The notes: generated by a model from the letters alone, not told the origin. Numbered from the stretch's first letter, positions 41,166 through 64,000 are shown. The stretch is DNA of 64,000 nucleotides from Candidatus Poribacteria bacterium (GCA_963665845.2 OY762492.1:1248001-1312000); one strand, 5' to 3'. A program made the numbers and translations.

Positions 41166-41175
41166 AAACGGCGCC

Positions 41176-51000: not shown

Positions 51001-51277
51001 TCGGAAATTGGGTGAGCGGAATGCGCCGCGTCGTCTTGGAGAGAACGACCGCTGTCGGCTTGGAATCAGCGGGGAGGGCGAGCGCCGCCGCGGCGTAAGG
51101 TTTGCCGGGGACGGCGCCGTCAAAGGTGAACGAGCTGCCGCTTTCGCGCAGGTTGTTCAACGTGAATTCAACGTTCAGGCCATGGTCGTCGGCGCCGACG
51201 ACTCGAATGTCGGCATCGGCGAATGCGCCGCTTCCAAAGAGGAGAGCCGCAGCCGCCCAAGAAAAAAGAGAGCGCAT
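45086..51277 (-). CDS. large secreted peptidase C25 (gingipain/PorU-like) with C-terminal FlgD-Ig sorting-like domain
   Basis: Signal peptide; YLII, IYN.F, LL.GD, IGRLP, YAGHG (His), TTC (Cys), YTLFGDP; C-terminal NAPNPF...WDG.S.DG..L.NGVY.Y. Confidence 0.85.
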   Translation of the reverse strand: MRSLFSWAAAALLFGSGAFADADIRVVGADDHGLNVEFTLNNLRESGSSFTFDGAVPGKPYAAAALALPADSKPTAVVLSKTTRRIPLTQFPKAQNLPETYSPALVSVRAAGYFRDQYLGALQIRPAAVDGADLVVTERCSVRIEFGASVSTVPGRVREKMPRSETMQTSMDRLLLNNRQAERLRVGRARPRTAPASTQEDDSLRRVKILVVQTALHRISPNALRSAGVDPDSIDPHTFRLTRLGNEVSIDITDKNENGRFDDADRIYFFAERIPHNRYNLTNAYFLEWGGKQGSRTFLKNGKPKTLDAPQPRAFRAPRFFEDNVFHDNLEKQDNDQIDHYFWTGFTGVTRKTPVVYDFTDEANNISAQAVFRILLHGGQNSNDPHEFSIYIGQNRIGRLNWNGQKSRYGEFYFPQRFVAEKTGFTFTSNDDNGTEARANNYDILLDWYEIDYWRRMEYSRVEPKGAYISERLYPEPDPGPVLFRVEACPTPFPLVYRIGGDGSLETRFAQLDAQIDNADPRTYTVSFEDDLTKPAQFAVVRPEDVKTPFAILPAPRSGLRSPSIKGNYLIIAHPVFMNALDELKEHRENQGFHVVVANIEDIYNDFNHGRFSPFAIKTFLRTAYQSWEIPPEYALLVGDGHYNYKGDNSDYFMRQANPEIVDGYPNFIPTIHGWSDGGLEGGGETPMDHRFATIEGKDKIPDLHIGRLPIHTVSELRSVIQKIIAYETESGPNPEWRSRVIHISDNRTTHNGDHVFRTSREELIRERTPPGYDVNKIYLRDKAPSNGKWDPPEEETLPSSREANDRIVKAVSEGALLLEYAGHGGRSVWADEDILRTEDILRMRNGARQPLVIATTCLISAFDSPEQIGQRSMGEEFLLRSGAGASAVIGATRKTYANCNIDFDNIFFPILFHHPSNRIGELLTTAKIEAVLFAENERSTYCIPGLMQYTLFGDPAAPLRRPDFNVEVKVKPEAVDPRQQLRVLQGSVLNMAVDPPMKVADFDGQMRIALDFPNNLDPYPHNDSPVVEHTVPVIGGEFLDSPQLTIPADLSTWGEASARVFAESHDGKQTAVGGAWFSIGQARILSVSAERIEDMLYISAEAVHPEGPDGVAKVTAHWKNTDDHVWKETPMPRKEGGLFESVEGIPLPRFGRSILYYVRFEDAGGRPEVVSETQRFRMPEGPNLAVRQIGSTDIPELSYGFDEETQRWVFRTTVVNLGDHRPEIPFEVLIIRGSADADGNGVLDADPPPEILAQAVVHPDQWLPGDPALDEWEQAPVVLPLEKPLSPGSHDITVWVDPERPDDPADTALGKIYELRETDNVTFKPFEVSDFYIGEDDATAYSLDRTFHIDVPKEAAPSPTTLSISLLPPMEGDLSDGEDAPYGRVQYQRIRNNDKTAFEVKLTSGDTAFKAPATLRIGFNYQALKDDVARDLDLPFNPFQWTSPEIESHKEAVKEALSLVSVYQWDEELAAWRRFPSTLDRGEDGEPIESVHITPPLYNNLESSNLRFHGDIEVDSTIGPIGKWAVMFVSHQKYRVLFNEGGDHAYIELPVPGRLDAPYQDETVYLRRMLVRNIDPEGPSSAVSKPAQPGDVLTFETVSENGIVQAKNMRYSNAGDGSVTLQLRANVTVNNALYGDWFVFFKSDSLYEIRDGNGDQILNSSGRAIQGSVNGVEINVGSIGLKFQALEGNRPFAFGDLARARIGRVMTIRAETDTAGIFTLMRDKDLNPPAVQIFVDNETPADGSVIEPQPEVAFLITDPNGIDPHAIQLRHKAPGAADFETVSPDQYSLDRSQIVQMSLRMKPALYVGEHAFQLRAVDLTGMEEPGAEFNFKVERPPDFDPPTIALHSEQGAVSPNHIFTKTPETLTLQIDDNHILSMRTLQLTVARKGEEGETPEPLAYEFQRPDPKTARISWSADLPNGEYEIHASFQDVTENEGYLSGSPEAPFRFSVEEPTRLIGQVLNAPNPFSPIDPVTRGTFFTYALTQPAESVTVRVYTSAGRLVKTIDDAPAERGKNEYRWDGRSDDGETLSNGVYFYKFRMESWHFDQKEAQERLGKLVILR

Positions 51278-51425: not shown

Positions 51426-52670
51426 ATGACGAACGCCAACTTTGCCAGTCGAACCATGTGGACAGGCGACAACCTGAACATCATGCGCGGCATGAACTCC
51501 GCCTGCGTCGACCTGATCTACCTTGATCCGCCCTTCAACAGCAAACGCGACTACGCCGCGCCGATCGGATCAAAGGCGGCGGGCGCCGAGTTCAAAGACA
51601 CATGGTCGCTGGAGGATGTGGACGTCGAATGGATCAACCTGATGGAATCGAGTTATCCGGCGATGCATCGGGTCTTGCTCGCCGCGATGACCGACTCGGA
51701 CAAAAGTTACCTCGCTTACATGGCAATACGGCTGCTGGAAATGAAGCGGATCTTGAAGCCGACAGGTTCTATCTACCTGCACTGCGACCCGACGATGAGC
51801 CACTATCTGAAGCTGCTGATGGACTCCATCTTTGGACGGAAGAATTTTAGAAATGAGATCGTCTGGTTTTACCCTGACTCTCCTGGACGAAGCACAAAAT
51901 ACTTTCCCAAAAAGCATGACATCATCATCTGCTACGGCAACGGAGGGGAGACGGTCTTCAACGGCGGCGATGTGCGAATTCCGCTGAAAGCCGCCTCGAT
52001 TCGCCGATACCAATCGCCGCGCACAATCGGCGGGAAAACATACCTCGGCGGCGAGGGAGCGAGTAAAGGCAAAATCCCTGAAGATGTATGGCAAATACCC
52101 GTTGTTAAAAAACACCGCGGATCCAAAGAGGCTACAGGCTATCCGACGCAGAAGCCTCTCGCGTTACTGAACCGCATCGTTAAGGCGTCGTCCAATGAGG
52201 GCGATCTTGTTCTGGATCCGTTTTGCGGCTGCGCGACGACTTTAGTCGCTGCCGAGGACCTGGGGCGCAACTGGACGGGTATCGATATCAGCCCAAAGGC
52301 ATCCGAGCTGGTCGTGTCGCGCATCGAAGAGCGGCAGGGGTTGTTTAAAGACATCGTCCACCGCAGCGACATTCCGAAACGCACTGACCTAGGCAAGCTT
52401 CCCCGACCCGCGACTCACAAGAAAACTCTATACGGCGAGCAGTCGGGCGACTGCGCAGGATGCGACGTCCATTTTGAAGCGCGCCATCTTGAAGTGGATC
52501 ATATCATCGCCAAGTCAAAGGGCGGAACCGACCATATCGACAACCTCCAACTGCTATGCGGCGACTGCAACCGAAAGAAAGGCAGTCGGGGCATGGAGTA
52601 TCTGCGCACTAGACTTCGACTTGGGATTCAGATGCAGGAGGGCAAGAGCGCGCGGGGGCGCGCCCGCTAA
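51426..52670 (+). CDS. N6/N4 DNA methyltransferase (beta class) fused to C-terminal HNH endonuclease
   Basis: GDNL, IYLDPPF, YPTQKP and LDPFCGCATT; C-terminal CAGC...DHII.KSKGG....NLQLLC..CN. Confidence 0.92.
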   Translation: MTNANFASRTMWTGDNLNIMRGMNSACVDLIYLDPPFNSKRDYAAPIGSKAAGAEFKDTWSLEDVDVEWINLMESSYPAMHRVLLAAMTDSDKSYLAYMAIRLLEMKRILKPTGSIYLHCDPTMSHYLKLLMDSIFGRKNFRNEIVWFYPDSPGRSTKYFPKKHDIIICYGNGGETVFNGGDVRIPLKAASIRRYQSPRTIGGKTYLGGEGASKGKIPEDVWQIPVVKKHRGSKEATGYPTQKPLALLNRIVKASSNEGDLVLDPFCGCATTLVAAEDLGRNWTGIDISPKASELVVSRIEERQGLFKDIVHRSDIPKRTDLGKLPRPATHKKTLYGEQSGDCAGCDVHFEARHLEVDHIIAKSKGGTDHIDNLQLLCGDCNRKKGSRGMEYLRTRLRLGIQMQEGKSARGRAR

Positions 52671-52693
52671 GCAGGACTAAAACCCCCGCGCCC

Positions 52694-52722
52694 TTGCCCC
52701 GTTCGCCATATCGCGCCATAAT
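52694..52722 (+). promoter_or_regulatory. sigma70 promoter for antitoxin copy 1
   Basis: TTGCCC-17 nt-CATAAT. Confidence 0.65.
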
Positions 52723-52780
52723 ATCCCCAGAGCCGCCTTTCAAATGCAGGGCATCATTGTGAGCAGAAGAGAGTATCTAT

Positions 52781-53299
52781 ATGAAAACGACCGACTATGA
52801 CGCCGAGGCGTATCTTCAGCGCGGCAACGCTTACCGCGCCAAAGGCGAGATCGACAAGGCGATTGCGGACTACACCTGCTTGCTAGAGATGCGTCCGAAG
52901 GTCGCGCGCCACTTTTACATTCGCGGGGAGACGCGTCTGCTGGCGCAAGACTGGGACGGCGCGCGGGACGACTTGTCCGCGTCGCTCCTTCAAGGCGTGG
53001 ATGTTGCCGCCGAGTTTCAAGCGAGCTTCGGAACCGCCCCCGCCTTTGAAGAGAAGACAGGCGTTCGTTTGCCGACAGAGATTGCGGAGCTGCTGCGGCC
53101 GCGGGAGGGCGTTCCGTTTGAGATGGACAAGGAGGCGCGCGTCGCCTTGGCGATGCGTTATTACGCGAGCGGCGAGCTGAGCAGCGGTCTTGCCGCGAAG
53201 CTTGCCGGCGTGATGCGCGAGGAGTTTTGGCGCCGCATGGGCGATTACGGGCTTTCTATCTTTAGTTTCGGCGATGTCAAAGTCGATAAAGGGCTTTGA
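52781..53299 (+). CDS. short TPR-UPF0175 (COG2886) antitoxin-like fusion, copy 1
   Basis: One TPR plus a capping repeat, then LA..YY....LS.G.AA.LAG..R.EF...MG.YG HTH. Confidence 0.8.
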   Translation: MKTTDYDAEAYLQRGNAYRAKGEIDKAIADYTCLLEMRPKVARHFYIRGETRLLAQDWDGARDDLSASLLQGVDVAAEFQASFGTAPAFEEKTGVRLPTEIAELLRPREGVPFEMDKEARVALAMRYYASGELSSGLAAKLAGVMREEFWRRMGDYGLSIFSFGDVKVDKGL

Positions 53300-53791
53300 A
53301 TGTCGATAGGTCCTATCGTCAGCGACAACAGTCCGCTTGTTGGGCTGTTGGAAATCAATCTGCTTTCTCTTCTTCGGGATCTTTATACAGAGGTTCTGAT
53401 CCCTAGAGCCGTTGAAAGCGAGTTTCTTCAATGGTCTCCAATTGCCCGCCGCGAGGCGCTTGACAACGCCCCATGGATCCGAGTCGTTGATTTACAGGAT
53501 CCGCAAAAAATATCGGACTATGGGAACCTTGGTCTAGGAGAAGCCGAGGCATTGGCTCTTGCCGACGAAAATAAGGCGCGTCTTGTTCTTATTGATGAGG
53601 AGGAAGGACGGAAGATAGCCGAAGAGCGCGGGTTTGCCGTCAAGGGGACAGTCGGCATTTTGCTGGAGGCAAAAGAGAAGCGTTTGATCGACAAGGTTGA
53701 ACCGCATTTGATCGCATTGAAAAAGAGCGGGATGCATATAAGCGACTCGCTCATCCGTCTAGCTCTGGAGATGGCAAGCGAGGCGGACTAA
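53300..53791 (+). CDS. DUF3368 (COG2405) PIN-domain toxin-like protein, copy 1
   Basis: VSDNSPL, IP.AV..E, LG.GEAEA, LIDE..GR and GT.GIL..AK motifs. Confidence 0.88.
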   Translation: MSIGPIVSDNSPLVGLLEINLLSLLRDLYTEVLIPRAVESEFLQWSPIARREALDNAPWIRVVDLQDPQKISDYGNLGLGEAEALALADENKARLVLIDEEEGRKIAEERGFAVKGTVGILLEAKEKRLIDKVEPHLIALKKSGMHISDSLIRLALEMASEAD

Positions 53792-53811
53792 CGAACGAGG
53801 CGCCTTCTTTC

Positions 53812-53840
53812 TTGCGCAGCCTGTCGGGGCGTGTCATGAT
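53812..53840 (+). promoter_or_regulatory. sigma70-like promoter for antitoxin copy 2
   Basis: TTGCGC-17 nt-CATGAT in the conserved post-toxin spacer. Confidence 0.55.
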
Positions 53841-53876
53841 GCCGGGCATATTATGAGCGCGTCGAGGAGAGAGACC

Positions 53877-54389
53877 ATGAGCAAACCGCTAAACGACGCC
53901 GAGGCGTATCTTCAGCGCGGCAACGCTCACCGCGCTAAAGGCGAGATCGACAAGGCGATTGCGGACTACACCTGCTTGCTAGAGATGCGTCCGAAGATCG
54001 CGCGCCACTTTTACATTCGCGGCGAGACGCGCCTGCTGGCGCAAGATTGGGACGGCGCGCGGGATGACCTGTCCGCGTCGCTCCTTCAAGGTATGGATGT
54101 TGCCGCCGAGTTTCAGGCGAGCTTCGGAACCGCCGCCGCCTTTGAAGAGAAAACAGGCGTTCGTCTGCCAACAGAGATTGTGGAGCTGTTGAGACCGCGG
54201 GAGGGCGTTCCGTTTGAGATGGACAAGGAGGCGCGCGTCGCCCTGGCGATGCGTTATTACGCAAACGATGAGCTCGGCAGCGGTCTTGCCGCCCGACTTG
54301 CCGGCGTGTCGCGCGTGGAGTTTTGGGATCTCATGGGCGATTACGGCCTTTATCTCATCACCGTCACCGACGACGACGACGGGCTTTAA
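53877..54389 (+). CDS. short TPR-UPF0175 antitoxin-like fusion, copy 2
   Basis: Near-identical to copy 1; GAGGAG RBS before MSKPLND. Confidence 0.8.
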   Translation: MSKPLNDAEAYLQRGNAHRAKGEIDKAIADYTCLLEMRPKIARHFYIRGETRLLAQDWDGARDDLSASLLQGMDVAAEFQASFGTAAAFEEKTGVRLPTEIVELLRPREGVPFEMDKEARVALAMRYYANDELGSGLAARLAGVSRVEFWDLMGDYGLYLITVTDDDDGL

Positions 54390-54881
54390 ATGTCAGTAGC
54401 TCCCGTCGTCAGCGACACGAGTCCGCTTATTTCGCTGTTGAAGATCGAAAAGCTTTTTCTTCTTCGGGATCTTTATACCGAAATTTTGATCCCTAGAGAA
54501 GTTGAAAACGAGTTTCTTGAAAAGTTTCCAGCAGCCTCCCGCGAGGCGCTTGACAACGCGCCATGGATCCGAGTCGTTGATTTACAGAACCCGCAAAAAA
54601 TAGCGGACTATGCGAGAATTAATCTAGGAGAAGCCGCAGCGTTGGTTCTTGTCGAGGAGAAAAAGGCACGTCTCATTCTTATGGACGATATGAAAGGACG
54701 GAAGGAAGCCAAAGCGCGCGGATTTGTCGTCAAGGGAACGGCAGGCGTTTTGCTGGAGGCAAAGGAAAAAGATTTGATCAACAAGGTGAAACCGCATTTA
54801 ATGGCAATGAAAAAGAGCGGGACATATCTAAGCGACTCGATCATCCGCGCAGCTCTGGAAAAGGCAGGCGAGACAGATTAA
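54390..54881 (+). CDS. DUF3368 PIN-domain toxin-like protein, copy 2
   Basis: VSDTSPL, V..E, GEAAA, MDD..GR and GT.GVL..AK motifs. Confidence 0.88.
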   Translation: MSVAPVVSDTSPLISLLKIEKLFLLRDLYTEILIPREVENEFLEKFPAASREALDNAPWIRVVDLQNPQKIADYARINLGEAAALVLVEEKKARLILMDDMKGRKEAKARGFVVKGTAGVLLEAKEKDLINKVKPHLMAMKKSGTYLSDSIIRAALEKAGETD

Positions 54882-54901
54882 CGAACAAGACGTATTCTTT
54901 C

Positions 54902-54930
54902 TTGCGCCCGCTCCGCTGCGTTGACATAAT
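54902..54930 (+). promoter_or_regulatory. sigma70 promoter for antitoxin copy 3
   Basis: TTGCGC-17 nt-CATAAT. Confidence 0.62.
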
Positions 54931-54990
54931 CCGCCTGACGCGTTACCGTAGAATCAACCTTTTTGAAAAATTGAAGCGTGGAGAAAGTCC

Positions 54991-55503
54991 ATGGGCAAAC
55001 CGCTAAACGACGCCGAGGCGTATCTTCAGCGCGGCAACGCTTACCGCGCTAAAGGTGAAATCGACAAGGCGATTGCGGACTACACCTGCTTGCTAGAGAT
55101 GCGTCCGAAGGTCGCGCATCACTTTTACATCCGCGGCGAGGCGCGCCTGCTGGCGCAAGACTGGGACGGCGCGCGGGACGACCTGTCCGCGTCGCTCCTT
55201 CAAGGCGTGGATGTTGCCGCCGAGTTTCAGGCAACCTTCGGAACCGCCGCCGCCTTTGAAGAGAAAACAGGCGTCCATTTGCCGGCAGAGATTGCGGAGC
55301 TGCTGCGCCCGCGGGAGGGCGTCCCGTTTGAGATGGACAAGGACGCGCGCGTCGCCCTGGCGATGCGCTATTACGCGAATGATGAGCTGAGCAGCGGTCT
55401 TGCCGCCCGACTTGCCGGCGTGTCGCGCGTGGATTTTTGGTATCTCATGGGCGATTACGGCCTTTATCTCATCACCGTCACCGACGACGATGACGGGCTT
55501 TGA
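54991..55503 (+). CDS. short TPR-UPF0175 antitoxin-like fusion, copy 3 (orphan)
   Basis: Near-identical to copy 2; followed only by ATG TCA TAA. Confidence 0.8.
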   Translation: MGKPLNDAEAYLQRGNAYRAKGEIDKAIADYTCLLEMRPKVAHHFYIRGEARLLAQDWDGARDDLSASLLQGVDVAAEFQATFGTAAAFEEKTGVHLPAEIAELLRPREGVPFEMDKDARVALAMRYYANDELSSGLAARLAGVSRVDFWYLMGDYGLYLITVTDDDDGL

Positions 55504-55519
55504 ATGTCATAACCATGTC

Positions 55520-55595
55520 GTCATTCCCGCGTAAGCGGGAATCTAGAGTCCTGCGCAGGGCTAAAACCCCCCTGCCCCCCTTACAAAGGGGGAAT
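55520..55595. repeat. dRS3-like hairpin plus CCCCCTT..AAGGGGG palindrome
   Basis: gtcattcccgcgtaagcgggaatc; aaaacccccctgccccccttacaaagggggaat. Confidence 0.85.
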
Positions 55596-55613
55596 CTAGA
55601 AAACCCTGCGCTC

Positions 55614-55642
55614 TTGCGCCGCCCGCCGTATCGCGCCATAAT
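55614..55642 (+). promoter_or_regulatory. sigma70 promoter for the type IIG-like RM gene
   Basis: TTGCGC-17 nt-CATAAT. Confidence 0.62.
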
Positions 55643-55664
55643 GGGCGTCAGAAAAGGGCGGCAT

Positions 55665-58600
55665 ATGAAAATGATGGGCGGCAAGATGAGTCTCCGAGAC
55701 GAGATCAAGCGGGCATTGGGCGCCTTCAGCGGCGGAAAACTGTCCGACAACGCGGCAAACCTGTTCAAGACGCTCGGCTATGAGAGCCAGAGGACGCTCA
55801 ACCGCCCCGACAACTCCCCCGACGCGCTCCTGAAAGATTTTGACACGGAGGAATGCTTTGACCGCGAGAAGGCGCGCCTAAACGAATGGGAAACGGCGGA
55901 CTTCCTGTTTCAACTGACCGCCCACGAACTCTCCCTCCCGACAACGGACCCCCAGCCCGCCGCCGAAAATCGCCTTGACCGCAGCGTCTACAAATCGTAT
56001 CTGTTCTTTGCGGTTCGGCTAAAGGGCGACGAGTATCCGCGCGGCGCGCTCGCCCGAATGACGCGCGAAATCAACCGCCTCTTTTCGATGCCCTCGTTCG
56101 TTCTCTTTCAGCATGGGCGGACGCTCACCTTCTCCGTCATAGACCGCCGCCCGAATAAGATTCAGCCGGAGCGGGACGTCCTCGAAAAAGTGACGCTCAT
56201 CAAAGACATTGACGTCCAACAGCCGCACCGCGCGCATCTCGACATACTCGCCGACCTGTCGCTGGACATCCTCTCATCAACGCAGACGTTCGAGAACATC
56301 ATGCAGTTCCATGAGGCATGGCGAAAAACGCTGGACGCCTCCGAACTGAACAAACGCTTCTTCAAGGAGATCGCCGACTGGCACTTCTGGGCGGTCAAGA
56401 CGGCAGCCTTCCCCGAAGACGGCGATCCCGACGACTCGCAGCGGCGCAGCGCCAACGGCGTCATCCGCCTCATCACGCGGCTCATCTTCGTCTGGTTCCT
56501 GAAAGAAAAGCAGCTCGTTCCAGAGGAGCTGTTCGACAAGGAGGAGGCGGGGCGGCTGCTCAACAGCCTCGAAGACGAGGAGAGTTCCTACTACAAAGCG
56601 ATCCTGCAAAACCTGTTTTTTGCGACGCTGAACCAAGAGATGAACCAGCCCGGTAAAAAGAAAAAGCGGGACTTCCGCAACGACGGGCAGCATTACAACA
56701 TCACGCATCTTTACCGCTATCGGCGCCTCTTCAGCGACCCGCAGGCGGCTCTCAAACTCTTTGAGTCGATCCCGTTTCTGAACGGCGGCTTGTTTGAATG
56801 TCTAGACAAGCCCGACCCTGAAAACCCCAAGAAGGTCCTGCGCGTTGACGGCTTCTCGGACAGATCGGACAACCAGATCGATGTCCCAAACGAGCTGTTT
56901 TTCGCCGAGAAAAAGTCGGTCGATCTGAACGAAGCATACGGAACCGAAAACAAGCTCTATTCGGCGCGGGGCGTCCTGCGCATCCTGGAACGGTATAAAT
57001 TCACCGTCGCGGAAAACACGCCGATAGAGGAGGAAGTCGCGCTAGACCCCGAACTGCTAGGGCGCGTCTTTGAAAACCTGTTTGCCGCCTACAACACGGA
57101 AACCGCCGCCGCCGCCCGCAAAGAGCAAGGCTCCTTCTACACGCCGCGCGGCATGGTGAACTATATGGTTGACGAGTCGCTCGTTGCCTACCTCAAAAAC
57201 AGCGTCAACGACGAAGAGCGGCTGCGCAAACTGACCGCCTACAACGACGAACCGCATGGCTTCGCCGACGATGAAACGGAACGGCTCATCGAAGCCATTG
57301 ACCGCCTCAAAATCATCGACCCGGCATGCGGGTCGGGCGCGTTTCCGATGGGCATTCTGCATAAGCTGGTCCACATGCTCGGCAAACTGGACCCGCTCAA
57401 CGAACAATGGAAACAGCGGCAGATCGCGCGAGTCGACAACGCGATTAAAGAGGTTGAACAGATCGACGTCTACCAATCCCGCGACCATGTTGACGGAGCT
57501 ATAAAAGAACTGGAACAGGAAAAGGCGGACATCGAAGAGGCGTTTGCGCGAAACGAACTCGATTATCCGCGAAAACTGTTCCTCATCAATAAGTGCATAC
57601 ACGGCGCGGACATCCAGCCCATCGCCGCGCAGATTGCCAAACTGCGTTTCTTCATCTCGCTCATCATCGACCAAAAAACGGACGACAAACGAGAGAATCG
57701 AGGCGTCCGGCCGCTGCCGAACCTAGAAACAAGGTTTGTCGCCGCGAATACGCTGATTGATCTGGAGCGTCCGGAGGGGCTGCACTTCTCCGACATAGAG
57801 CGAAAAAAGAAGGACCTGAAGGCGATACGGGATAAGCATTTCACTGTCAGAGATCCGCGAACGAAGGAGAAGTACCGCAAGAAGGACGAGGAACTGCGCA
57901 AGCAAATCAGCGAACTGATCCTCAAGAAAATTGGCGCGGCGCGGGAATTCTCAAGAGAGACCGCCGAAATGATGGCGAACTGGGACCCATACGACCAAAA
58001 CGCTGTCGCCGACTTCTTCAACGCCGAATGGATGTTTGGCGTGGAGCAGTTCGACATCGTTATCGGAAACCCGCCCTATGTGCGCCAAGAGAAGATTGAT
58101 AAGAAACTGAAGGCGCTCCTCAAAGATAAAAAACGGTATACCGCTTTCACGGGCAAATCCGACCTGTATATCAGCTTTTATGAGCGCGGGTTCCAGCTGC
58201 TCAAAGAGCGCGGCGTCCATACCTTTATCTGCTCAAACAGCTGGCTCGACGTCCAATACGGCGCGCCGCTGCAGGAATACCTGTTGACGAACGCGGCGGA
58301 AGGCGTCGTCTGCCACAGCGAAGCGGAACGCGCCTTTGAAACGGCAGACGTCAACACCATCGTCAGCCTCTTCCGCAAAGGAAAGCCCGATGAGCTGGCG
58401 CAGATGCGCTTCATAACGTTCAAAGGGGCGGTCGGAGACGCGGAGCAGGAGGAACCCCAAGAACGCGCCCCCTCATACGAACAGCTGTTACAGGAAGGGA
58501 CGCGCAACGGAAAATACGCCGGCGGCAAATGGGGCGGACGGTATCTGCGCGCGCCCGACATCTACTGGACAATCCTGAAAAAAGGCGAAGGCAAACTGAA

Positions 58601-59381
58601 GCCGCTGAGCAGTCTTGCGGAGGCTCGGATCGGCGTCAAAACAGGCGCCAACGAGTTCTTTTTTCTGGACGAAGCGCAGATTCAGAAATGGGGAATTGAG
58701 CCGAAGTTTTTGCATCCCGGTGTCAAAAATTCGAGTGATTGCAAAACGATCCGCATTGATCCGAGGCGGCTGCATCTTCAGCTGTTCATGTGCCATACCG
58801 ATGAAGAGGCGTTGACGGGAACCGCCGCGCTGGAGTATATCCGCTGGGGCGAATCGCAAGGGTTCCATCAACGCCCAAGCTGCCGAGGACGCCCTAGATG
58901 GTATGATTTAGGGGAACGGCGGAAGCCGACGCTTGTGTTCAATCGTACGGTTCATTCAACAGCGAGAACCTTGTATGCGCCTGACGGTTGCTATGCAAGC
59001 AACACTTTTCATGAGGTACATGCGGATTCAGATTTGACGCTGCCGCTGTGCGCCGCCTTGAATTCAACGCCGTTTCAGTTGATGGTGAACACGATGGGGC
59101 GTTCGAATCTCGGCGGAGGCGCGCTGGCAATTGAGGCTTACGAACTTTTAGATTTGCAGTGCCTAGATCCAAAGACCTTTGCCTTTGACGACGCGGCGCT
59201 GTTCGATTCGTCGGCGTGGGATGCGGTCAAGTTGTCCGACGCCCGACGCGCTCTCGACAGCGTCATCTTCGATGCGCTCCATCTGACGCAAGGCGAACGC
59301 GACGGCGTTTATGAGGCGGTCGTCCGTCTGGTGGAGAATCGGCTTCGGAAGGCGAAGAGCGCGCGGGGCCGCTCCCGCTAG
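55665..59381 (+). CDS. Eco57I/type IIG-like restriction-modification protein (gamma-class N6A MTase plus TRD)
   Basis: IPFLNGGLF, LDPELLG.VFENL, GSFYTP, IIDPACGSGAF and IVIGNPPY. The ORF-track start at 55500 runs through repeats; the real start is 55665 or 55686. Confidence 0.88.
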   Translation: MKMMGGKMSLRDEIKRALGAFSGGKLSDNAANLFKTLGYESQRTLNRPDNSPDALLKDFDTEECFDREKARLNEWETADFLFQLTAHELSLPTTDPQPAAENRLDRSVYKSYLFFAVRLKGDEYPRGALARMTREINRLFSMPSFVLFQHGRTLTFSVIDRRPNKIQPERDVLEKVTLIKDIDVQQPHRAHLDILADLSLDILSSTQTFENIMQFHEAWRKTLDASELNKRFFKEIADWHFWAVKTAAFPEDGDPDDSQRRSANGVIRLITRLIFVWFLKEKQLVPEELFDKEEAGRLLNSLEDEESSYYKAILQNLFFATLNQEMNQPGKKKKRDFRNDGQHYNITHLYRYRRLFSDPQAALKLFESIPFLNGGLFECLDKPDPENPKKVLRVDGFSDRSDNQIDVPNELFFAEKKSVDLNEAYGTENKLYSARGVLRILERYKFTVAENTPIEEEVALDPELLGRVFENLFAAYNTETAAAARKEQGSFYTPRGMVNYMVDESLVAYLKNSVNDEERLRKLTAYNDEPHGFADDETERLIEAIDRLKIIDPACGSGAFPMGILHKLVHMLGKLDPLNEQWKQRQIARVDNAIKEVEQIDVYQSRDHVDGAIKELEQEKADIEEAFARNELDYPRKLFLINKCIHGADIQPIAAQIAKLRFFISLIIDQKTDDKRENRGVRPLPNLETRFVAANTLIDLERPEGLHFSDIERKKKDLKAIRDKHFTVRDPRTKEKYRKKDEELRKQISELILKKIGAAREFSRETAEMMANWDPYDQNAVADFFNAEWMFGVEQFDIVIGNPPYVRQEKIDKKLKALLKDKKRYTAFTGKSDLYISFYERGFQLLKERGVHTFICSNSWLDVQYGAPLQEYLLTNAAEGVVCHSEAERAFETADVNTIVSLFRKGKPDELAQMRFITFKGAVGDAEQEEPQERAPSYEQLLQEGTRNGKYAGGKWGGRYLRAPDIYWTILKKGEGKLKPLSSLAEARIGVKTGANEFFFLDEAQIQKWGIEPKFLHPGVKNSSDCKTIRIDPRRLHLQLFMCHTDEEALTGTAALEYIRWGESQGFHQRPSCRGRPRWYDLGERRKPTLVFNRTVHSTARTLYAPDGCYASNTFHEVHADSDLTLPLCAALNSTPFQLMVNTMGRSNLGGGALAIEAYELLDLQCLDPKTFAFDDAALFDSSAWDAVKLSDARRALDSVIFDALHLTQGERDGVYEAVVRLVENRLRKAKSARGRSR

Positions 59382-59388
59382 GCGGGTC

Positions 59389-59573
59389 GTCATTCCCGCC
59401 GCCGTTCCGCGTCCCCCGCCGTCCCCCGCTTCCGCGAGGGCATGCATTCCCGCGCCCCTCGCTGTCATTCCCGCGCCCCTCCTCGTCATTCCCGCGTAAG
59501 CGGGAATCCAGAGGCGCCGCCGAAACCGCCCGCGCTCCTCGCCGTCATTCCCGCGTAAGCGGGAATCCAGAGT
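59389..59573. repeat. cluster of complete and partial GTCATTCCCGC hairpins
   Basis: Two full attccc-gcgtaagc-gggaat hairpins and several half sites. Confidence 0.85.
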
Positions 59574-59594
59574 CCGCAAGGTCAGCCTTTTCTG

Positions 59595-59623
59595 TTGACA
59601 TTCGCTGTCGGGCATGATAGGGT
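59595..59623 (+). promoter_or_regulatory. sigma70-like promoter for the long TPR antitoxin
   Basis: TTGACA-17 nt-TAGGGT. Confidence 0.5.
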
Positions 59624-59650
59624 TACTAGCGTAATGATTGGAGCGTCGGT

Positions 59651-62269
59651 ATGAGCGAAATACAGCCTCACGATAATTCGAGCTTGGCACGGTTTGTTCC
59701 GAGCTTGGCACAGTTTAACGAAAAGCAGCAGCCTATCGTTATTCGGATATCTGCACAGTTTCTGGAATTTGAGGCAGATCCGTATCTGTTCCGCGGCCTT
59801 CCGAAGGAGAGTGCGGATAACAGACCGTATAATGAATCTGATGTCCGGAACCACCTAAGACGCGGTAACGATGCGCATGTGAAAGGCGATCTTGACGACG
59901 CCATCAGAGAATATACCAAAGCGATTGAGCTGGATCCAAACTCTGCCGACGCTTATCGCCTGCGCGGCGTCGCTTACGGCACAAAAGGCGATCTTGACGA
60001 CGCTATCAAAGATTTCAGCAAGGCGATTGAGCTGGATCCAAACTCTGCCGACGCCTATCACAATCGCGGCTTTGCTTACGGCACAAAAGGCGATCTTGAC
60101 GACGCCATCGAAGATTATACCAAAGCGATTGAGCTGGATCCGAGCTCCGTCATCACTTATGTCTTTCGCGGCATGGCTTATGTTCAAAACAGCGAACATG
60201 AAAAAGCCATTGACGACTGCAGCAAGGCAATCGAAATCGATTCAGACAATCTTGACGCCTACAACTTTCGCGGCTGCGCTTATTTCGGAAAAGGCGATCT
60301 CGACAAAGCCATTGACGACTACAGCAAAGCAATCGAAATCGATCCAAACAATGCCATAACCTATGCCAACCGAGGCAGCGCTTATGTCCAAAATAGCGAG
60401 CGTGGAAAAGCCATTGACGACTGCAGCAAGGCAATCGAAATCGATCCAAACGATGCCTTCGCCCATCGGATTCGCGGCGACGCTCATGCCGAAAACAACG
60501 ATTTTCAGGCAGCCATAAAAGATTTTGACAAAGCGGTTGAACTGGACCCAAACGATGTCGGCGTCTATAACAGTCGCGGCTACGCTTATGTCCAAAAAGG
60601 CGATTTTCAGGCAGCCATAAAAGATTTTGACAAAGCGGTTGAACTGGACCCAAACAATATGGCTGTTTATAACAATCGCGGCTACGCTTATGTCCAAAAA
60701 GGCGATTTTCAGGCAGCCATAAAAGATTTTGACAAAGCGGTTGAACTGGACCCAAACAATGCGGCGGTCTATGCCAATCGTGGCAAGGCTTATGCCAAAA
60801 ACAGCGATTTTGAGACTGCCATCGAAGATTATACCGAAGCAATCGAACTGGACCCAAATGATGTCGACATCTATAACAATCGCGGCATTGCTCATGCCGA
60901 AAACAACGATTTTCATGCAGCCTTCGAAGATTTTAATAAAGCGATTGAGATCAATCCAAAATATGCAGAAGCCTATAGCAATCGCGGTGGAGCTTACGCC
61001 CGAAAAGGCGATTTTGAAACAGCCATCATAGATTATGACAAATCGATTAAACTGGACCCAAAAGGAGTCAATGCCTATAGCAATCGCGGTCGGGCTTACG
61101 CCCGAAAAGGCGATTTTGAAACAGCCATCGAAGATTATACCGCAGCGATCGAACTGAACCCGAACGATGTCGGCGTCTATAACAGCCGCGGCATTGCTCA
61201 TGCCGAAAACAACGATTTTGAGGCTGCCATCAAAGATTTTGACAAAGCGATTGAACTGGATCCAAACGAGGACAACATCTATAGAAATCGCGGTCGGGCT
61301 CACGCCATAAAAGGCGATTTTGAGGCTGCCATCGAAGATTATACCGAAGTGATTGAGCTGGACCCAAACGATGTCAATGCCTACCGCAATCGTGGCTTGG
61401 CCTATGCTCAAAACAGCAATTTTGATGCCGCTATCCTGGACTACACAAAAGCGATTGAGCTGAACCCAAACGATGCTGTCGCCTATAACAATCGCGGCTT
61501 GGCTTACATCCCAAAACGCGATTTTGACGCCGCCATCAGAGACTATGACAAGGCGATCGAGATAAATCCAAACTTTGCCGACGCCTATGGCAATCGCGGC
61601 AACGCTTATGCTGGAAACAGTGATTATGATGCGGCTATTCAGGACTACACAAAAGCGATTGAGCTGAACCCAAACGATGCTATCTCCTATAACAATCGCG
61701 GCAGCATTTATTACGCTGGAAAACGCGATTTTGACGCCGCTATCAGAGACTATGGCAAGGCAACAGAACTGGATCCAAACAATGCCGGCGCCTATAATAA
61801 CCGCGCCAATGTTTACCGCACTAAAGGCGAGATCGACAAGGCAATTGAGGACTACAGCCGCTTGCTAGAGATGCGTCCGAAGGTCGCGCGTCACTTTTAC
61901 CTACGCGGCGCAGCGCGGCTGCTGGCAAAAGACTGGGACGGCGCGGGGGATGACTTGTCCGCGTCGCTCCTTCAAGGCGTGGACGTTGCCGCCGAATTTG
62001 AGAAAACCTTCGGAAGTGCCGCTGTCTTTGAAGAGAAAACTGGCGCTCGTTTACCGTCCGAAATTATGGAGCTGGTGCGCCCGCGGGAGGGCGTCCCGTT
62101 TGAGATGGACAAGGAGGCGCGCGTCGCCTTGGCGATGCGTTATTACGCAAACGACGAATTGAGCAGCGGTCTTGCCGCCCGACTTGCCGGCGTGTCGCGC
62201 GTCGATTTTTGGGATCTCATGGGCGATTACGGACTTTCTATCTTTAGCTTTGACGACGACGAGCTTTGA
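59651..62269 (+). CDS. long TPR (about 20 repeats)-UPF0175 antitoxin-like fusion, copy 4
   Basis: Twenty 34-aa repeats (Y.NRG.AY...D...AI.D..KAIE.DP) followed by the same cap and UPF0175 module as the short copies. Confidence 0.88.
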   Translation: MSEIQPHDNSSLARFVPSLAQFNEKQQPIVIRISAQFLEFEADPYLFRGLPKESADNRPYNESDVRNHLRRGNDAHVKGDLDDAIREYTKAIELDPNSADAYRLRGVAYGTKGDLDDAIKDFSKAIELDPNSADAYHNRGFAYGTKGDLDDAIEDYTKAIELDPSSVITYVFRGMAYVQNSEHEKAIDDCSKAIEIDSDNLDAYNFRGCAYFGKGDLDKAIDDYSKAIEIDPNNAITYANRGSAYVQNSERGKAIDDCSKAIEIDPNDAFAHRIRGDAHAENNDFQAAIKDFDKAVELDPNDVGVYNSRGYAYVQKGDFQAAIKDFDKAVELDPNNMAVYNNRGYAYVQKGDFQAAIKDFDKAVELDPNNAAVYANRGKAYAKNSDFETAIEDYTEAIELDPNDVDIYNNRGIAHAENNDFHAAFEDFNKAIEINPKYAEAYSNRGGAYARKGDFETAIIDYDKSIKLDPKGVNAYSNRGRAYARKGDFETAIEDYTAAIELNPNDVGVYNSRGIAHAENNDFEAAIKDFDKAIELDPNEDNIYRNRGRAHAIKGDFEAAIEDYTEVIELDPNDVNAYRNRGLAYAQNSNFDAAILDYTKAIELNPNDAVAYNNRGLAYIPKRDFDAAIRDYDKAIEINPNFADAYGNRGNAYAGNSDYDAAIQDYTKAIELNPNDAISYNNRGSIYYAGKRDFDAAIRDYGKATELDPNNAGAYNNRANVYRTKGEIDKAIEDYSRLLEMRPKVARHFYLRGAARLLAKDWDGAGDDLSASLLQGVDVAAEFEKTFGSAAVFEEKTGARLPSEIMELVRPREGVPFEMDKEARVALAMRYYANDELSSGLAARLAGVSRVDFWDLMGDYGLSIFSFDDDEL

Positions 62270-62761
62270 ATGTCAGTAAAGCCCGTCATCAGCGACACAA
62301 GTCCGCTTATTGCGCTGTCGAAGATCCAGAAGCTTTCGCTTCTTCGGGATCTTTATACAGAGGTTCTGATCCCTAGAGCTGTTGAAAACGAGTTTCTTCA
62401 AAAGTTTCCAATTGCCCGCCAGGAGGAGCTTGACAACGCCCCATGGATCCGAGTCGTTGATTTACAGGACCCTCAAAAAGCAGCGGCAAATGTAAGACTT
62501 GGTCTAGGGGAAGCCGAGGCTTTGGTTCTTGCCGACGAGAAAAAAGCGCGACTCGTTCTTATGGACGAGAAGAAAGGACGGAAGGCAGCCAGAGAGGGCG
62601 AGTTTATCGTTAAGAGAATGGCAGATATTTTGCTGGAGGCAAAGAAGAAACGCCTGATTGACATGGTTGAACCGTATTTAAACGCATTGAAAGCTAAGGG
62701 AGAACGTCTAAGCGATCCGATGATCCATAAAATTCTGAAGGCGGCGGGCGAGGCGGACTAA
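62270..62761 (+). CDS. DUF3368 PIN-domain toxin-like protein, copy 3
   Basis: ISDTSPL, V..E, LG.GEAEA and MDE..GR; ATG abuts the antitoxin stop. Confidence 0.88.
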   Translation: MSVKPVISDTSPLIALSKIQKLSLLRDLYTEVLIPRAVENEFLQKFPIARQEELDNAPWIRVVDLQDPQKAAANVRLGLGEAEALVLADEKKARLVLMDEKKGRKAAREGEFIVKRMADILLEAKKKRLIDMVEPYLNALKAKGERLSDPMIHKILKAAGEAD

Positions 62762-62845
62762 CGGACACGGCGCGTTCTTTCTTGCGCCGCCCGCCCCGAT
62801 GCGTTATGCTGTATCGGCAATCGGTTCGTTATGGAGGCTTTTTCG

Positions 62846-63652
62846 ATGAGAATGACTGACGAGGAGCGTTTTCGTTTTGACCTGAACGGGTATCTGCTGC
62901 GTCCGGCGATTTTGTCCCAGGACGAAATCGACGCGATCATTGACCAGATCGACCGCATCAAGCATGACCCTGAATCGCTGCCGCCTGAGCATCGCGCTGT
63001 GCCGGGCGGTCCGTCCAGCGTGTTGATTGATCATCCGATGGTGATCGGCGTTCTGAATGACATCATCGGACCTGAAATCCGTCTGGAGAGCAGTTTTTGC
63101 ATCTGGCGGCAGAAGGGTCAGAGCGCGGGCGGTTTGCATGGCGGCGGCCCGAGTCAGGGGGATCCGATCTTCGGCTATCGGGTTCGCAACGGGCGGATCC
63201 ATGCGGGGATGGTGCGCGTCGCGTTTGAGTTGACGGCCGTTTCCAAAGAGGACGGCGGGACGCATTTCATACCGGGCAGCCACAAGTCCAACTTCCCGAT
63301 GCATCCTGATCATATGTCGTTGGAGGACGGGAAGCGCAGCCCGTTTTTGACCAGCTACGACTGCCCCGCCGGCAGCGCGCTGTTCTTCACGGAGAACCTG
63401 TGCCATGCGGGTCCTGTATGGAAGCGGGACACGCCGCGCGTCACGGTTTTCAACGCTTACGCGCATCTGGCGACGCACTGGCATCGGTTGACGATTCCGC
63501 CCGCTGTGTTGAACGCCCTGCCGCGCGAGAAGCAGGCGTATTTCAGGGAGCCTTGGGTGGCAGACTTCCGCACCAGTCCCGCGACGCACAACACAATTGA
63601 GCGTTTTGTCGGGAACGAGGAGCCGACGGTCAACACGGATCGGCAGCCTTAG
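62846..63652 (+). CDS. phytanoyl-CoA dioxygenase (PhyH)-family 2OG-Fe(II) enzyme, HxG variant
   Basis: FDLNGYL, LIDHP, LHGG, DGGT..IPGSHK, AGS...F.E.L.H and distal R; GGAGG RBS before 62846. Confidence 0.87.
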   Translation: MRMTDEERFRFDLNGYLLRPAILSQDEIDAIIDQIDRIKHDPESLPPEHRAVPGGPSSVLIDHPMVIGVLNDIIGPEIRLESSFCIWRQKGQSAGGLHGGGPSQGDPIFGYRVRNGRIHAGMVRVAFELTAVSKEDGGTHFIPGSHKSNFPMHPDHMSLEDGKRSPFLTSYDCPAGSALFFTENLCHAGPVWKRDTPRVTVFNAYAHLATHWHRLTIPPAVLNALPREKQAYFREPWVADFRTSPATHNTIERFVGNEEPTVNTDRQP

Positions 63653-63737: not shown

Positions 63738-63783
63738 GGCAAAGCCGCTTGCGTTCCGCCGCCGAATCGCGTAGGATTGCCGT

Positions 63784-64000
63784 ATGACAGCCAAGAAGAT
63801 ACGTTTGACAGAAACGGTCGAGTGCGCGGGTTGAGCGTCTAAGTTGTCTCCGGCGGCGCTGGAGAAGGCGGTCGGTCTTTTGCCGAAAACGGACGATCCG
63901 TCCCTGCTTTGGGGGATGGACACGTCGGACGATGCCGGCGTGTACCAGCTCTCTGACGAGATCGCGGTCGTCAACAGCGTCGACTATTTCACTCCCATTG
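63784..64000 (+). CDS. selD: selenophosphate synthetase, selenoprotein form (5' part; runs off the window)
   Basis: MTAKKIRLTETVECAG-UGA-ASKLSPAALEKAV...LLWGMDTSDDAGVYQLSDEIAVVNSVDYFTPI; TGA at 63832-63834 occupies the catalytic Cys/Sec position. Confidence 0.93.
63847..63865 (+). promoter_or_regulatory. candidate bacterial SECIS hairpin
   Basis: tctccgg-cggcg-ctggaga stem-loop starting 12 nt after the in-frame UGA. Confidence 0.65.

Follow-up and report, generated by a model that had tools for sequence, protein, structure and literature searches.

A variable slot in the genome of a Candidatus Poribacteria bacterium, a sponge-type organism whose genome is about 90% complete, carries an array that is probably a defensive variant of a type II toxin-antitoxin (TA) pair, in which a COG2405/DUF3368 PIN toxin is partnered by a UPF0175 antitoxin fused to a helical cap and a variable number of TPRs. 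The fuller reading, namely that tandem copies of this variant occupy a slot for defence genes and that the PIN toxin is freed in infection, stands slightly short of an even chance. The array was analysed within a window of 64,000 nucleotides, and its features are collected in Table 1.

Anatomy of the array

Table 1. Features of the array and boundaries of its slot, counted from the first nucleotide of the window.
Feature	Position	Strand	Remarks
Peptidase C25 gene	45086-51277	-	Left boundary of variable slot
MTase-HNH	51426..52670	+	N6/N4 DNA methyltransferase fused to HNH; Pfam N6_N4_Mtase and HNH
Promoter-like site	52694..52722	+	17-bp spacer, before A1
A1	52781..53299	+	TPR (1 canonical, 1 degenerate)-helical cap-UPF0175 HTH antitoxin, 172 aa
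T1	53300..53791	+	COG2405/DUF3368 PIN toxin, PADLOC PDC-S70 match, 163 aa
Promoter-like site	53812..53840	+	Before A2
A2	53853..54389	+	Short TPR-cap-UPF0175 antitoxin
T2	54390..54881	+	COG2405/DUF3368 PIN toxin, 67% identity to T1
Promoter-like site	54902..54930	+	Before A3
A3	54991..55503	+	Short TPR-cap-UPF0175 antitoxin, 92% identity to A2; no toxin partner (lost)
Two-codon stub	55504..55512	+	Start as in toxin genes; putative remnant of lost toxin
REP-like palindromic repeat	55516..55551	.	Core ATTCCC-N8-GGGAAT
Promoter-like site	55614..55642	+	Before IIG gene; 84% like A1 promoter region
Type IIG-like restriction-modification enzyme	55665..59381	+	Eco57I methylase domain
Two more REP-like repeats	59484..59575	.	
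Promoter-like site	59595..59623	+	Before A4
A4	59651..62269	+	~60-aa FRG-domain remnant, 20 TPRs, cap, UPF0175 antitoxin; 872 aa
T3	62270..62761	+	COG2405/DUF3368 PIN toxin
phyH-family gene	62831..63652	+	Right boundary of variable slot

All nine open reading frames of the first-pass annotation were recovered in their order and positions, and in all three antitoxin-toxin (A-T) pairs the toxin ATG follows the antitoxin stop codon with a zero-base gap, as had been noted. Each of A1-A4 exceeds the Pfam cut-offs for TPR_1 and UPF0175 (PF03683, 46-50 bits against a cut-off of 27.9), and T1-T3 each exceed that of the DUF3368 PIN domain (PF11848). The original repeat count of one versus about 20 holds for A4, in which Pfam delineates 20 TPR_1 stretches, but in the short antitoxins an AlphaFold model (pLDDT 89) shows the cap preceded by one canonical and one degenerate hairpin. 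Behind the stop codon of A3, ATG-TCA-TAA repeats the first bases of the toxin genes and is followed by a REP-like repeat; hence A3 had a toxin stub rather than being a simple orphan, and the two codons presumably derive from a lost toxin. Fold searches with A1, which barely probed the cap-HTH part, returned TPR proteins only, the ESM Atlas yielded generic TPR clusters only, NCBIfam offered no model for A1 or T1-T3, and no meaningful match came from a PDB sequence search.

Among repeat domains, TPRs occur most often in poribacterial genomes; they have been discussed as host-interaction factors (PMC3909097), which would suit the view that the repeats are eukaryote-like, serve the interaction with the sponge host and are linked to TA genes incidentally. 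However, the A proteins lack a hydrophobic signal-like N-terminus, as judged from their sequences, and their C-terminal antitoxin domain, of DNA-binding type, is coupled to the gene of a cytoplasmic toxin, which renders this view highly improbable.

An assembly artefact, raised at first pass as a possible source of the tandem copies, is rejected. Contigs listed for four runs on three samples of one study bridge the T1-A2, A2-T2-A3, MTase-A1, REP-IIG, REP-A4 and T3-phyH junctions at similar depth and with 0 differing letters (2 in one contig), and the sister species has an array in the same slot. The whole array is found in no single contig, and the A1-T1, A3-stub and A4-T3 junctions are absent among the matches listed. 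On contig C3, an alternative haplotype, an FRG-TPR-cap gene stands where A1 starts.

Of the proposal that each unit has its own promoter, the sites themselves stood: a promoter-like site precedes five cassette genes, and a looser motif, defined from these same sites, occurs before A1, A2, A3, the IIG gene, A4 and phyH. A stock promoter scan, on the contrary, detected only two sites on the plus strand and no enrichment (4 against a shuffle mean of 5.8). At 17-bp spacing the strict form of the motif has 116 occurrences in the genome, compared with 12-33 at eight other spacings. The site of A4 shares 80-84% identity with those of FRG-TPR genes at C1:3443049 and on C3. REP-like repeats number 866 in contig C1, and the two further copies downstream mean that the IIG gene, whose start is most likely at 55665 and not at the TTG at 55500, is flanked by REPs. 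An integron cassette array was rejected as well: the best match to the integron integrase model TIGR02249 in this ~90% complete genome reaches 80 bits against a cut-off of 265, and the inter-gene repeats are the promoter-like sites and REPs.

The toxins and their predicted complex with the antitoxin

T1-T3 match seven models of the PADLOC family PDC-S70, the best of them (PDLC05071, E 2e-40 to 1.6e-44) over its full length (model positions 3-159 of 161), and the antitoxin HTH weakly matches an eighth. The acidic residues D9, E41, E81, D99 and D/E100 are present in all three toxins, the active site being assigned by alignment pattern (a stand-alone T1 model from 3 sequences has a pLDDT of 45). 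Among 52 toxins, which evolve with a dN/dS of 0.22, E41, E81 and D99 are invariant, while the first catalytic position is Asp in the six of this genus and Asn in the other 46, so that many relatives may be weak nucleases.

Binding of T1 by A1 is predicted, as the first-pass pairing had it, with a complex score of 0.86, the best of 3 controls scoring 0.00; this is a mark that 116 of 157 solved complexes attain but only 2 of 215 mismatched pairs do. Individual runs share at least 89% of contacts, with partner pLDDT of at least 91. In the predicted interface, residues 36-40 and 131-168 of A1 meet residues 10-14, 41-45, 75-81, 99-104 and others of T1, such that the HTH and tail of the antitoxin would cover the catalytic site of the PIN domain. 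In the model the toxin is touched by the last TPR loop too, through which the repeats might act on toxin release. Together with the literature on both families, the predicted complex backs the assignment to type II TA systems.

Alternatively, the A-T complex may itself be the working unit, the PIN domain acting as a mild nuclease that is targeted or regulated by the TPR-HTH subunit at protein-bound RNA or DNA, with no antidote involved. This would accommodate the prevalent Asn, the variably complete active sites listed for COG2405 (PMC5499597) and the finding that E. coli could harbour a PDC-S70 member (10.1101/2024.09.26.614923). Yet in the predicted complex the active-site residues lie within the interface, and the pattern of decay is the one usual for TA systems: an intact PIN gene lies directly downstream in 49 of 71 fusions, whereas in 22 the antitoxin has outlasted a toxin that is broken (11) or missing (11), and a frameshift splits the antitoxin in a single case, in which the toxin is broken as well. 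A complex without antidote is accordingly regarded as improbable.

For the predicted inhibitory complex, the distribution of substitutions is informative. Among the six toxins of the genus, at least three states occur at 18 of 36 predicted interface positions versus 26 of 127 others (p=0.001), with a dN/dS of 0.93 at the interface versus 0.56 elsewhere, and the antitoxin tail shows a dN of 0.18 versus 0.07 for the TPR-cap and 0.04 for the HTH. Over all 52 toxins the excess at the interface is gone (0.23 versus 0.22). Paralogues within the genus thus appear to diversify at the toxin-antitoxin interface with a near-identical TPR-cap, as expected for insulated paralogues.

Distribution of the fusion

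The first-pass annotation suspected a conserved fusion of variable length, and TPR-UPF0175 fusions with 1-31 TPRs were indeed matched in 78 of 151 Poribacteria genomes. Most relatives have one or two matches, often between housekeeping genes; tandem arrays are confined to this genus. A second species of the genus has a three-pair array of its own in that slot, where the cargo has been swapped: the IIG gene is absent and MTase-HNH is replaced by an MTase-Mrr-like gene. Two of its three antitoxins have about 2 repeats, two copies being 99% identical in the TPR-cap; as three of the four antitoxins of the window are equally short, the arrays do not amount to a diversified sensor set.

Unfused UPF0175-PIN pairs occur in the class, and TPRs are therefore unneeded for neutralisation. 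In a PIN tree built by a quick method only, five unfused pairs are nested inside fused ones, which would fit either a single fusion that later reverted or repeated fusion events. Outside Poribacteria, no fusion was found among 68 GTDB loci (63 titled Poribacteria and 5 'uncultured bacterium') by a search that needs close motif matches and may miss unrelated TPR-UPF0175 fusions; a search of long proteins gave 3 matches, all of them TPR fusions. A phage-borne origin was rejected, as a pattern search of IMG/VR returned no relative. Two metatranscriptome runs contain 8-11% of the words.

The TPR-cap module and its other partners

Missed at first pass and new here is the recurrence of the TPR-antitoxin fusion with unrelated toxins, at least four families in all: TPR proteins with antitoxin-like tails precede eight ParE-like and two VapC toxins in this genome, and Doc in relatives. 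All eight ParE-like toxins (profile search) and all four UPF0175 domains of the genome have TPR-fused partners. Moreover, among 93 cap-bearing representatives the same TPR-cap module bears FRG (37) or TIR (17), effectors that match PDC-S15 and ThsB. The variable TPR stack may be a plug-in infection sensor on unrelated antitoxins (of COG2405 PIN, ParE-like, VapC and Doc toxins) and on FRG/TIR effectors, giving a lineage-wide, recombining immune repertoire of receptors and effectors without an NLR ATPase, a generalisation put forward with considerable reserve.

The TPR arrays are under purifying selection, with omega values of 0.64 in the groove, 0.40 at outer and 0.29 at structural positions (89 pairs, the choice of which inflates omega). 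Positive selection of the grooves was not detected, omega between genomes being below 1; duplicated repeats yielded 1.07 on 8 pairs, with the changes at repeat ends, which are likely duplication boundaries.

These observations also bear on a selfish or addiction TA origin, according to which antitoxins were fused to abundant TPR-cap genes as both gather in the same recombination-prone slots, leaving the TPRs as a passive or stabilising extension and any anti-phage effect to antitoxin decay. The cap ends in the motif LPxEIxxLL, which resembles the first helix of unfused UPF0175 and would offer a ready fusion point. The drift of TPR number, the frequent toxin decay, the origin of A4 as a rearranged FRG-TPR gene and the joining of the TPR-cap to the TaqI_C specificity domain of neighbouring IIG genes agree with such an origin, as do the occurrence of the same VapC antitoxin in fused and unfused form within one genome and the tandem amplification of unfused TA pairs in this genome. 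On the other hand, the fusion is kept in frame under purifying selection in about half of the genomes, recurs across toxin families and extends to every ParE-like toxin and UPF0175 domain here. In addition, the predicted toxin contact involves a fusion-specific loop (PK, A1 39-40) that is nearly invariant in 33 aligned fusions and mostly missing from unfused TPR-cap proteins. Weighed together, a purely selfish origin seems rather unlikely.

Restriction-modification neighbours

The IIG gene matches PADLOC REase_MTase_IIG (1.7e-71) and contains an Eco57I domain, while MTase-HNH has dozens of paralogues in the genome. Restriction-modification (RM) genes were taken as island markers by the first-pass annotation, but with 66 MTase/IIG-like ORFs of at least 200 aa in the genome, DNA methyltransferases are weak markers here. 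MTase, IIG, FRG or TIR genes occur in 31 of 68 fusion loci versus 5 of 40 control regions, and within 2.5 kb in 22 of 68 versus 3 of 40, although the marker profiles were seeded from the same loci, which favours the test set; with one locus drawn per site, markers remain in about 11 of 21 (range 9-13, p <=0.011). The anticipated enrichment near defence genes is therefore found, though over half of the loci (37/68) lack all four markers and the largest site, with 26 loci, sits among housekeeping genes.

The companion idea, that the TPR antitoxin binds the IIG enzyme or MTase and frees the PIN toxin once that enzyme comes under attack by a phage inhibitor, draws on IIG genes located upstream in the same orientation at 11 of 68 loci (profile search), four of them within ~300 bp of the fusion gene, on a second island of this genome that again mixes TPR-antitoxin pairs with an IIG gene and a PLD-SNF2 helicase, and on 7 of 13 other TPR-antitoxin loci lying <=5 kb from an MTase versus 16.5% of random points (p=0.002). 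It nevertheless finds little support and is improbable, because RM genes are swapped, as in the sister species, or absent, as from most fusion loci, while the pairs persist; the promoter-like site of each gene likewise speaks against it.

Relation to known systems

COG2886/UPF0175-COG2405/DUF3368 is a predicted type II TA pair, and UPF0175 has been reported exclusively beside COG2405 (Makarova 2009, PMC2701414; Matelska 2017, PMC5499597). The array shares the two families, the antitoxin-first order and the abutting genes. Known antitoxins, however, comprise ~90-100 aa, whereas here a cap and 1-31 TPRs replace the N-terminus, preceded in some cases by FRG or TIR, and this genus has amplified the pair in tandem. 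Since the antitoxins are not small single-domain proteins (170-872 aa here, with TPR and cap), the array constitutes a variant of this pair.

Through the profile matches of T1-T3 to its PIN models, the array is also akin to PADLOC PDC-S70, which the available part of the source defines as a single-gene PIN system without describing a TPR partner or regulation. One PDC-S70 member, different from those studied here and of a subfamily that this part leaves unstated, cut plating in E. coli ~100-fold for T7 and T4 and ~1000-fold for T5 (10.1101/2024.09.26.614923). The first-pass opinion that no named system has this architecture stands insofar as no published description of a TPR-fused UPF0175 antitoxin was found in the literature; the toxin family, though, is already a PADLOC candidate.

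Multi-domain antitoxins that sense infection have precedents. CapRel SJ46 frees a translation-blocking toxin but is a single polypeptide whose sensor domain is small (10.1101/2023.12.08.570793), and in VapBC52 the antitoxin doubles as infection sensor of a PIN tRNase, VapC52, although VapB52 uses an HTH-peptidase and self-cleavage (PMC13273310). Neither has a variable-length repeat scaffold or one common to unrelated toxins.

TPR repeats accompany effectors in prokaryotic immunity, as in Avs/NLR-like sensors. Avs/STAND-TPR sensors differ by their STAND NTPase, for which A4 has no space, being made up of the 60-aa leader, the TPRs, the cap and the HTH. TPR-GreAB-C-PIN (Pfam PF20698; PMC9503650) likewise combines TPR and PIN in prokaryotic immunity, but here the PIN domain is a separate gene of another family, partnered by a classic antitoxin domain; no GreAB domain appears in A1-A4 among the Pfam matches listed (best 25 of 39 for A4), and PF20698 matches T3 only below cut-off (E=0.016).

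Proposed mechanism and implications

In the proposed mechanism, the COG2405 PIN protein, a likely RNase, would be kept inactive by the UPF0175 domain at the C-terminus of the TPR-fused antitoxin until phage infection frees it and the infected cell is stopped, with the TPR stack as the candidate trigger of release. Amplification in this genus would have kept the TPR-cap near-identical while the toxin-antitoxin interface diverged. That the genes form a working TA pair, with the presumed RNase activity and toxicity, is very likely, and an anti-phage role appears reasonably probable; that a ligand bound by the TPRs triggers release, as opposed to host shut-off followed by antitoxin decay, is suggested only tentatively.

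To our knowledge, detection of infection by type II antitoxins is known for few systems only. If the proposal is true, a variable-length repeat scaffold on unrelated antitoxins would be a general and testable answer to this problem, for which the window provides a built-in experiment with near-identical antitoxins of 2 versus about 21 repeats and three diverged toxins. Moreover, the COG2886-COG2405 pair and PDC-S70 would gain a regulatory partner, and many 'eukaryote-like' TPR proteins of sponge symbionts would be anti-phage receptors rather than host-interaction factors.

Architecture and Integrity of the Array

The nine genes assigned to the array by the first-pass annotation proved to be as described in position and Pfam domains, including the UPF0175 domain that terminates each of the antitoxin-like proteins A1 to A4. 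A1 to A3 comprise 170-178 aa, and A4 comprises 872 aa with 20 TPR_1 stretches. The structure model of A1 (pLDDT 89) predicts two TPR-type hairpins, followed by a three-helix cap and the HTH. The toxin candidates T1 to T3 are 163-aa DUF3368 proteins sharing 66-67% pairwise identity, and the first base of each directly follows the antitoxin stop codon, as had been claimed. Downstream of A3, a two-codon toxin stub precedes a REP-like repeat (ATTCCC-N8-GGGAAT); such repeats lie on both sides of the IIG gene and number 866 in contig C1 of this genome (assembly G000). Their core resembles the neisserial dRS3 element.

The tandem copies are no assembly artefact, since six array junctions are bridged by contigs of four runs (three samples, one study) with nearly no differences and at similar depth, although no contig among these runs covers the entire array. 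As to the proposal that each unit has its own promoter, a motif with a 17-bp spacer, derived from these same array sites, precedes A1, A2, A3, the IIG gene, A4 and phyH. Across the genome, the strict form of this motif is more frequent at this spacing (116 versus 12-33 at other spacings), but a stock promoter scan found no excess of sites.

Predicted Toxin-Antitoxin Pairing

UPF0175 and COG2405 proteins appear as a predicted TA pair in earlier work (PMC2701414, PMC5499597, PMC6929052). For A1-T1, the pair that was modelled, binding is predicted with a score of 0.86 compared to 0.00 for the best control; on a benchmark only roughly valid for the alignments used here, this score is attained by 116 of 157 solved complexes and 2 of 215 mismatched pairs. 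Contact agreement is at least 89% and partner pLDDT at least 91. In the model, the acidic PIN residues would be covered by the antitoxin HTH and tail (131-168), and a loop of the last TPR (36-40) would also touch the toxin. The PK motif of this loop is nearly invariant among the fusions and rare among unfused caps.

The residues E41, E81 and D99 are the same in all 52 distinct toxins, whose dN/dS is 0.22, but position 9 carries Asn in 46, with Asp confined to the six toxins of this genus. Within these six, variable positions amount to 18 of 36 at the predicted interface versus 26 of 127 elsewhere (p=0.001), an excess that is absent across all 52; antitoxin tails in this genus are also more variable than the TPR-cap. 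The candidates very probably constitute working TA pairs.

Distribution and the Variable Slot

The fusion was found at 68 GTDB loci, by title 63 of Ca. Poribacteria and five of uncultured bacterium, and a cap-HTH query, at E 1e-15 or better, hits 78 of 151 genomes from the phylum, in most cases with one or two matches each. The viral contigs searched yielded no relative. Across the 71 fusion ORFs of these loci, the TPR number ranges from 1 to 31, and the PIN gene directly downstream is intact in 49, broken in 11 and absent in 11. An N-terminal FRG or TIR domain occurs in three of these fusions, and at one further locus from another search. Unfused UPF0175 genes are likewise common in the class. 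Poribacterial TPRs are discussed in PMC3909097 as host-interaction proteins. Full-text searches of the open-access literature listed no paper on TPR-fused antitoxins or on the TPR-UPF0175 fusion.

Inside the same two borders (peptidase C25 and phyH), a second species of the genus carries another MTase, one bearing an Mrr-like domain. One long A-T pair and two short ones come after it, and an IIG gene is missing. Contig C3 of this genome matches C1 at 97% up to the MTase-HNH stop, beyond which a frame-broken FRG-TPR-cap gene replaces A1. The promoter and first residues of A4 come from an FRG-TPR gene like that on C3. A different stretch of C1 has its own 97% copy in contig C2.

Association with Defence Genes

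T1 to T3 match PDC-S70, a PADLOC candidate presented in PMC12988326 as a single PIN gene and not mentioned in the main text of 10.1101/2024.01.29.577857. According to 10.1101/2024.09.26.614923, one PDC-S70 member lowers plating of T7, T4 and T5 100- to 1000-fold in E. coli.

The suggested enrichment near defence genes is borne out for a portion of the loci: N6/N4 MTase, IIG, FRG or TIR genes accompany 31 of the 68, versus 5 of 40 control regions (fixed positions in eight genomes of the class); the marker profiles took their seeds from this genome and the same loci, and the 68 loci are related. Counting one locus per site leaves about 11 of 21, and 37 of the 68 carry none of the four markers. 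Other TPR-antitoxin loci of this genome lie within 5 kb of an MTase in 7 of 13 cases versus 16.5% for random points; the genome holds 66 MTase/IIG-like ORFs of at least 200 aa, many of them MTase-HNH. A defence role of the A-T pairs is moderately likely.

Are the TPRs a Sensor?

Toxin release triggered by the TPRs, as the first-pass annotation suggested, is a tentative and somewhat doubtful reading. Avs proteins sense through TPRs. Sensor-antitoxins have precedents in CapRel and in VapBC52 (PMC13273310). Points in favour of sensing are that the fusion stays in frame, that TPRs recur alongside several toxins and effectors, and that a TPR-toxin contact is predicted. Purifying selection under which groove positions evolve fastest (omega 0.64, versus 0.40 and 0.29) also points this way. 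Yet groove omega stays below 1, the within-protein repeat selection test is confounded, and most antitoxins of the array carry roughly two repeats each and share almost identical TPR-caps. Moreover, unfused partners exist, and the fusion could arise easily, given that the last cap helix looks like the beginning of UPF0175 in its unfused form.

A Wider TPR-Antitoxin Theme

All eight ParE-like ORFs that a profile seeded on three members recovers from this genome directly follow a TPR protein whose tail is antitoxin-like; in a scan of five, Pfam ParE_like confirmed four and weakly matched one, and one of the other three is apparently truncated. The tails are called antitoxins on account of their position and resemblance, not of a library match. 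Among 81 genomes, this family is restricted to the genus. Two of four PF01850 PIN genes likewise come after TPR proteins, one of these antitoxins also existing unfused, and in relatives a TPR protein lies upstream of a Fic/Doc gene; at three such loci (L069, L089, L114) the TPR proteins directly upstream end in a common short tail. TPR-antitoxin pairs recur in a second island, where a large MTase, a PLD-SNF2 helicase and an IIG gene lie among them.

Of the best 150 representatives, 93 contain the cap, and among these, profiles built here find FRG in 37 and TIR in 17. Their tails include UPF0175 and a TaqI_C-like domain as well as other ends that resemble antitoxins. Six loci (L037, L051, L055, L068, L070, L087) show a C-terminal TaqI_C-like specificity domain on TIR- or FRG-TPR-cap proteins with an AAA/SMC-like ATPase gene next, a recurrent two-gene module. 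FRG is proposed in PMC9503650 as an NAD-targeting immune effector.

Coordinates of features in the window and in assembly G000
Feature	Location	Content
Slot left border	window 45086-51277	2063-aa peptidase C25 (gingipain-like), FlgD Ig, CHU_C-like C-terminus
Shared gene end	window 52625-52670 (MTase-HNH), 59336-59381 (IIG)	~30 bases, GC-rich; C3 haplotype diverges immediately past it
A2-tail variants	window 54320 and 54327	A3 letters in sample X3; may reflect gene conversion among the copies, or a chimeric contig
Alternative haplotype	G000:C3:14340-15776	MTase-HNH stop, then REP, A4-type promoter, frame-broken FRG-TPR-cap gene
TPR proteins with antitoxin-like tail and direct ParE-like toxin	G000:C1 317538, 1107485, 1680518, 1905434, 2348007, 2465365, 2774235, 3608147	
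Orphan TPR proteins with antitoxin-like tail	G000:C1 1238961, 1692052, 2788789, 3471148, 2515846	
Second island (L042)	G000:C1:1676500-1696000	MTase of N6/N4 type, a small ORF inserted in it; PIN pair; ParE-like toxin paired with TPR-antitoxin at 1680518-1681314; PLD-SNF2 helicase; IIG enzyme; IS1595 transposase; VapC paired with TPR protein at 1690481-1691980; orphan TPR-antitoxin; duplicate TPR protein then toxin stub
Restriction neighbourhood (L043)	G000:C1:1906300-1909500	PLD + DpnI_C protein and type II restriction enzyme adjoining TPR-antitoxin/ParE-like pair
TPR-VapC pair	G000:C1:3493623-3496101	674-aa TPR protein, then VapC-type PIN; tail homologous to a 181-aa protein that occurs unfused ahead of further PIN genes
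Unfused tandem (L046)	G000:C1:3608900-3612000	181-aa protein + PIN pair in tandem, copies partly decayed
Helicase	window 18075-21125	RNase T-type exonuclease domain inserted in UvrD-like helicase
selA-selB	window 39282-43092	
selD-like gene start	window 63743-64000	At window end; in-frame TGA, likely selenocysteine

Concluding Remarks

The TPR-UPF0175 fusion with its PIN partner is a real, phylum-restricted new form of a known TA family, and this form is probably defensive. It is one case within a broader TPR-antitoxin theme, which the first-pass annotation had not included.
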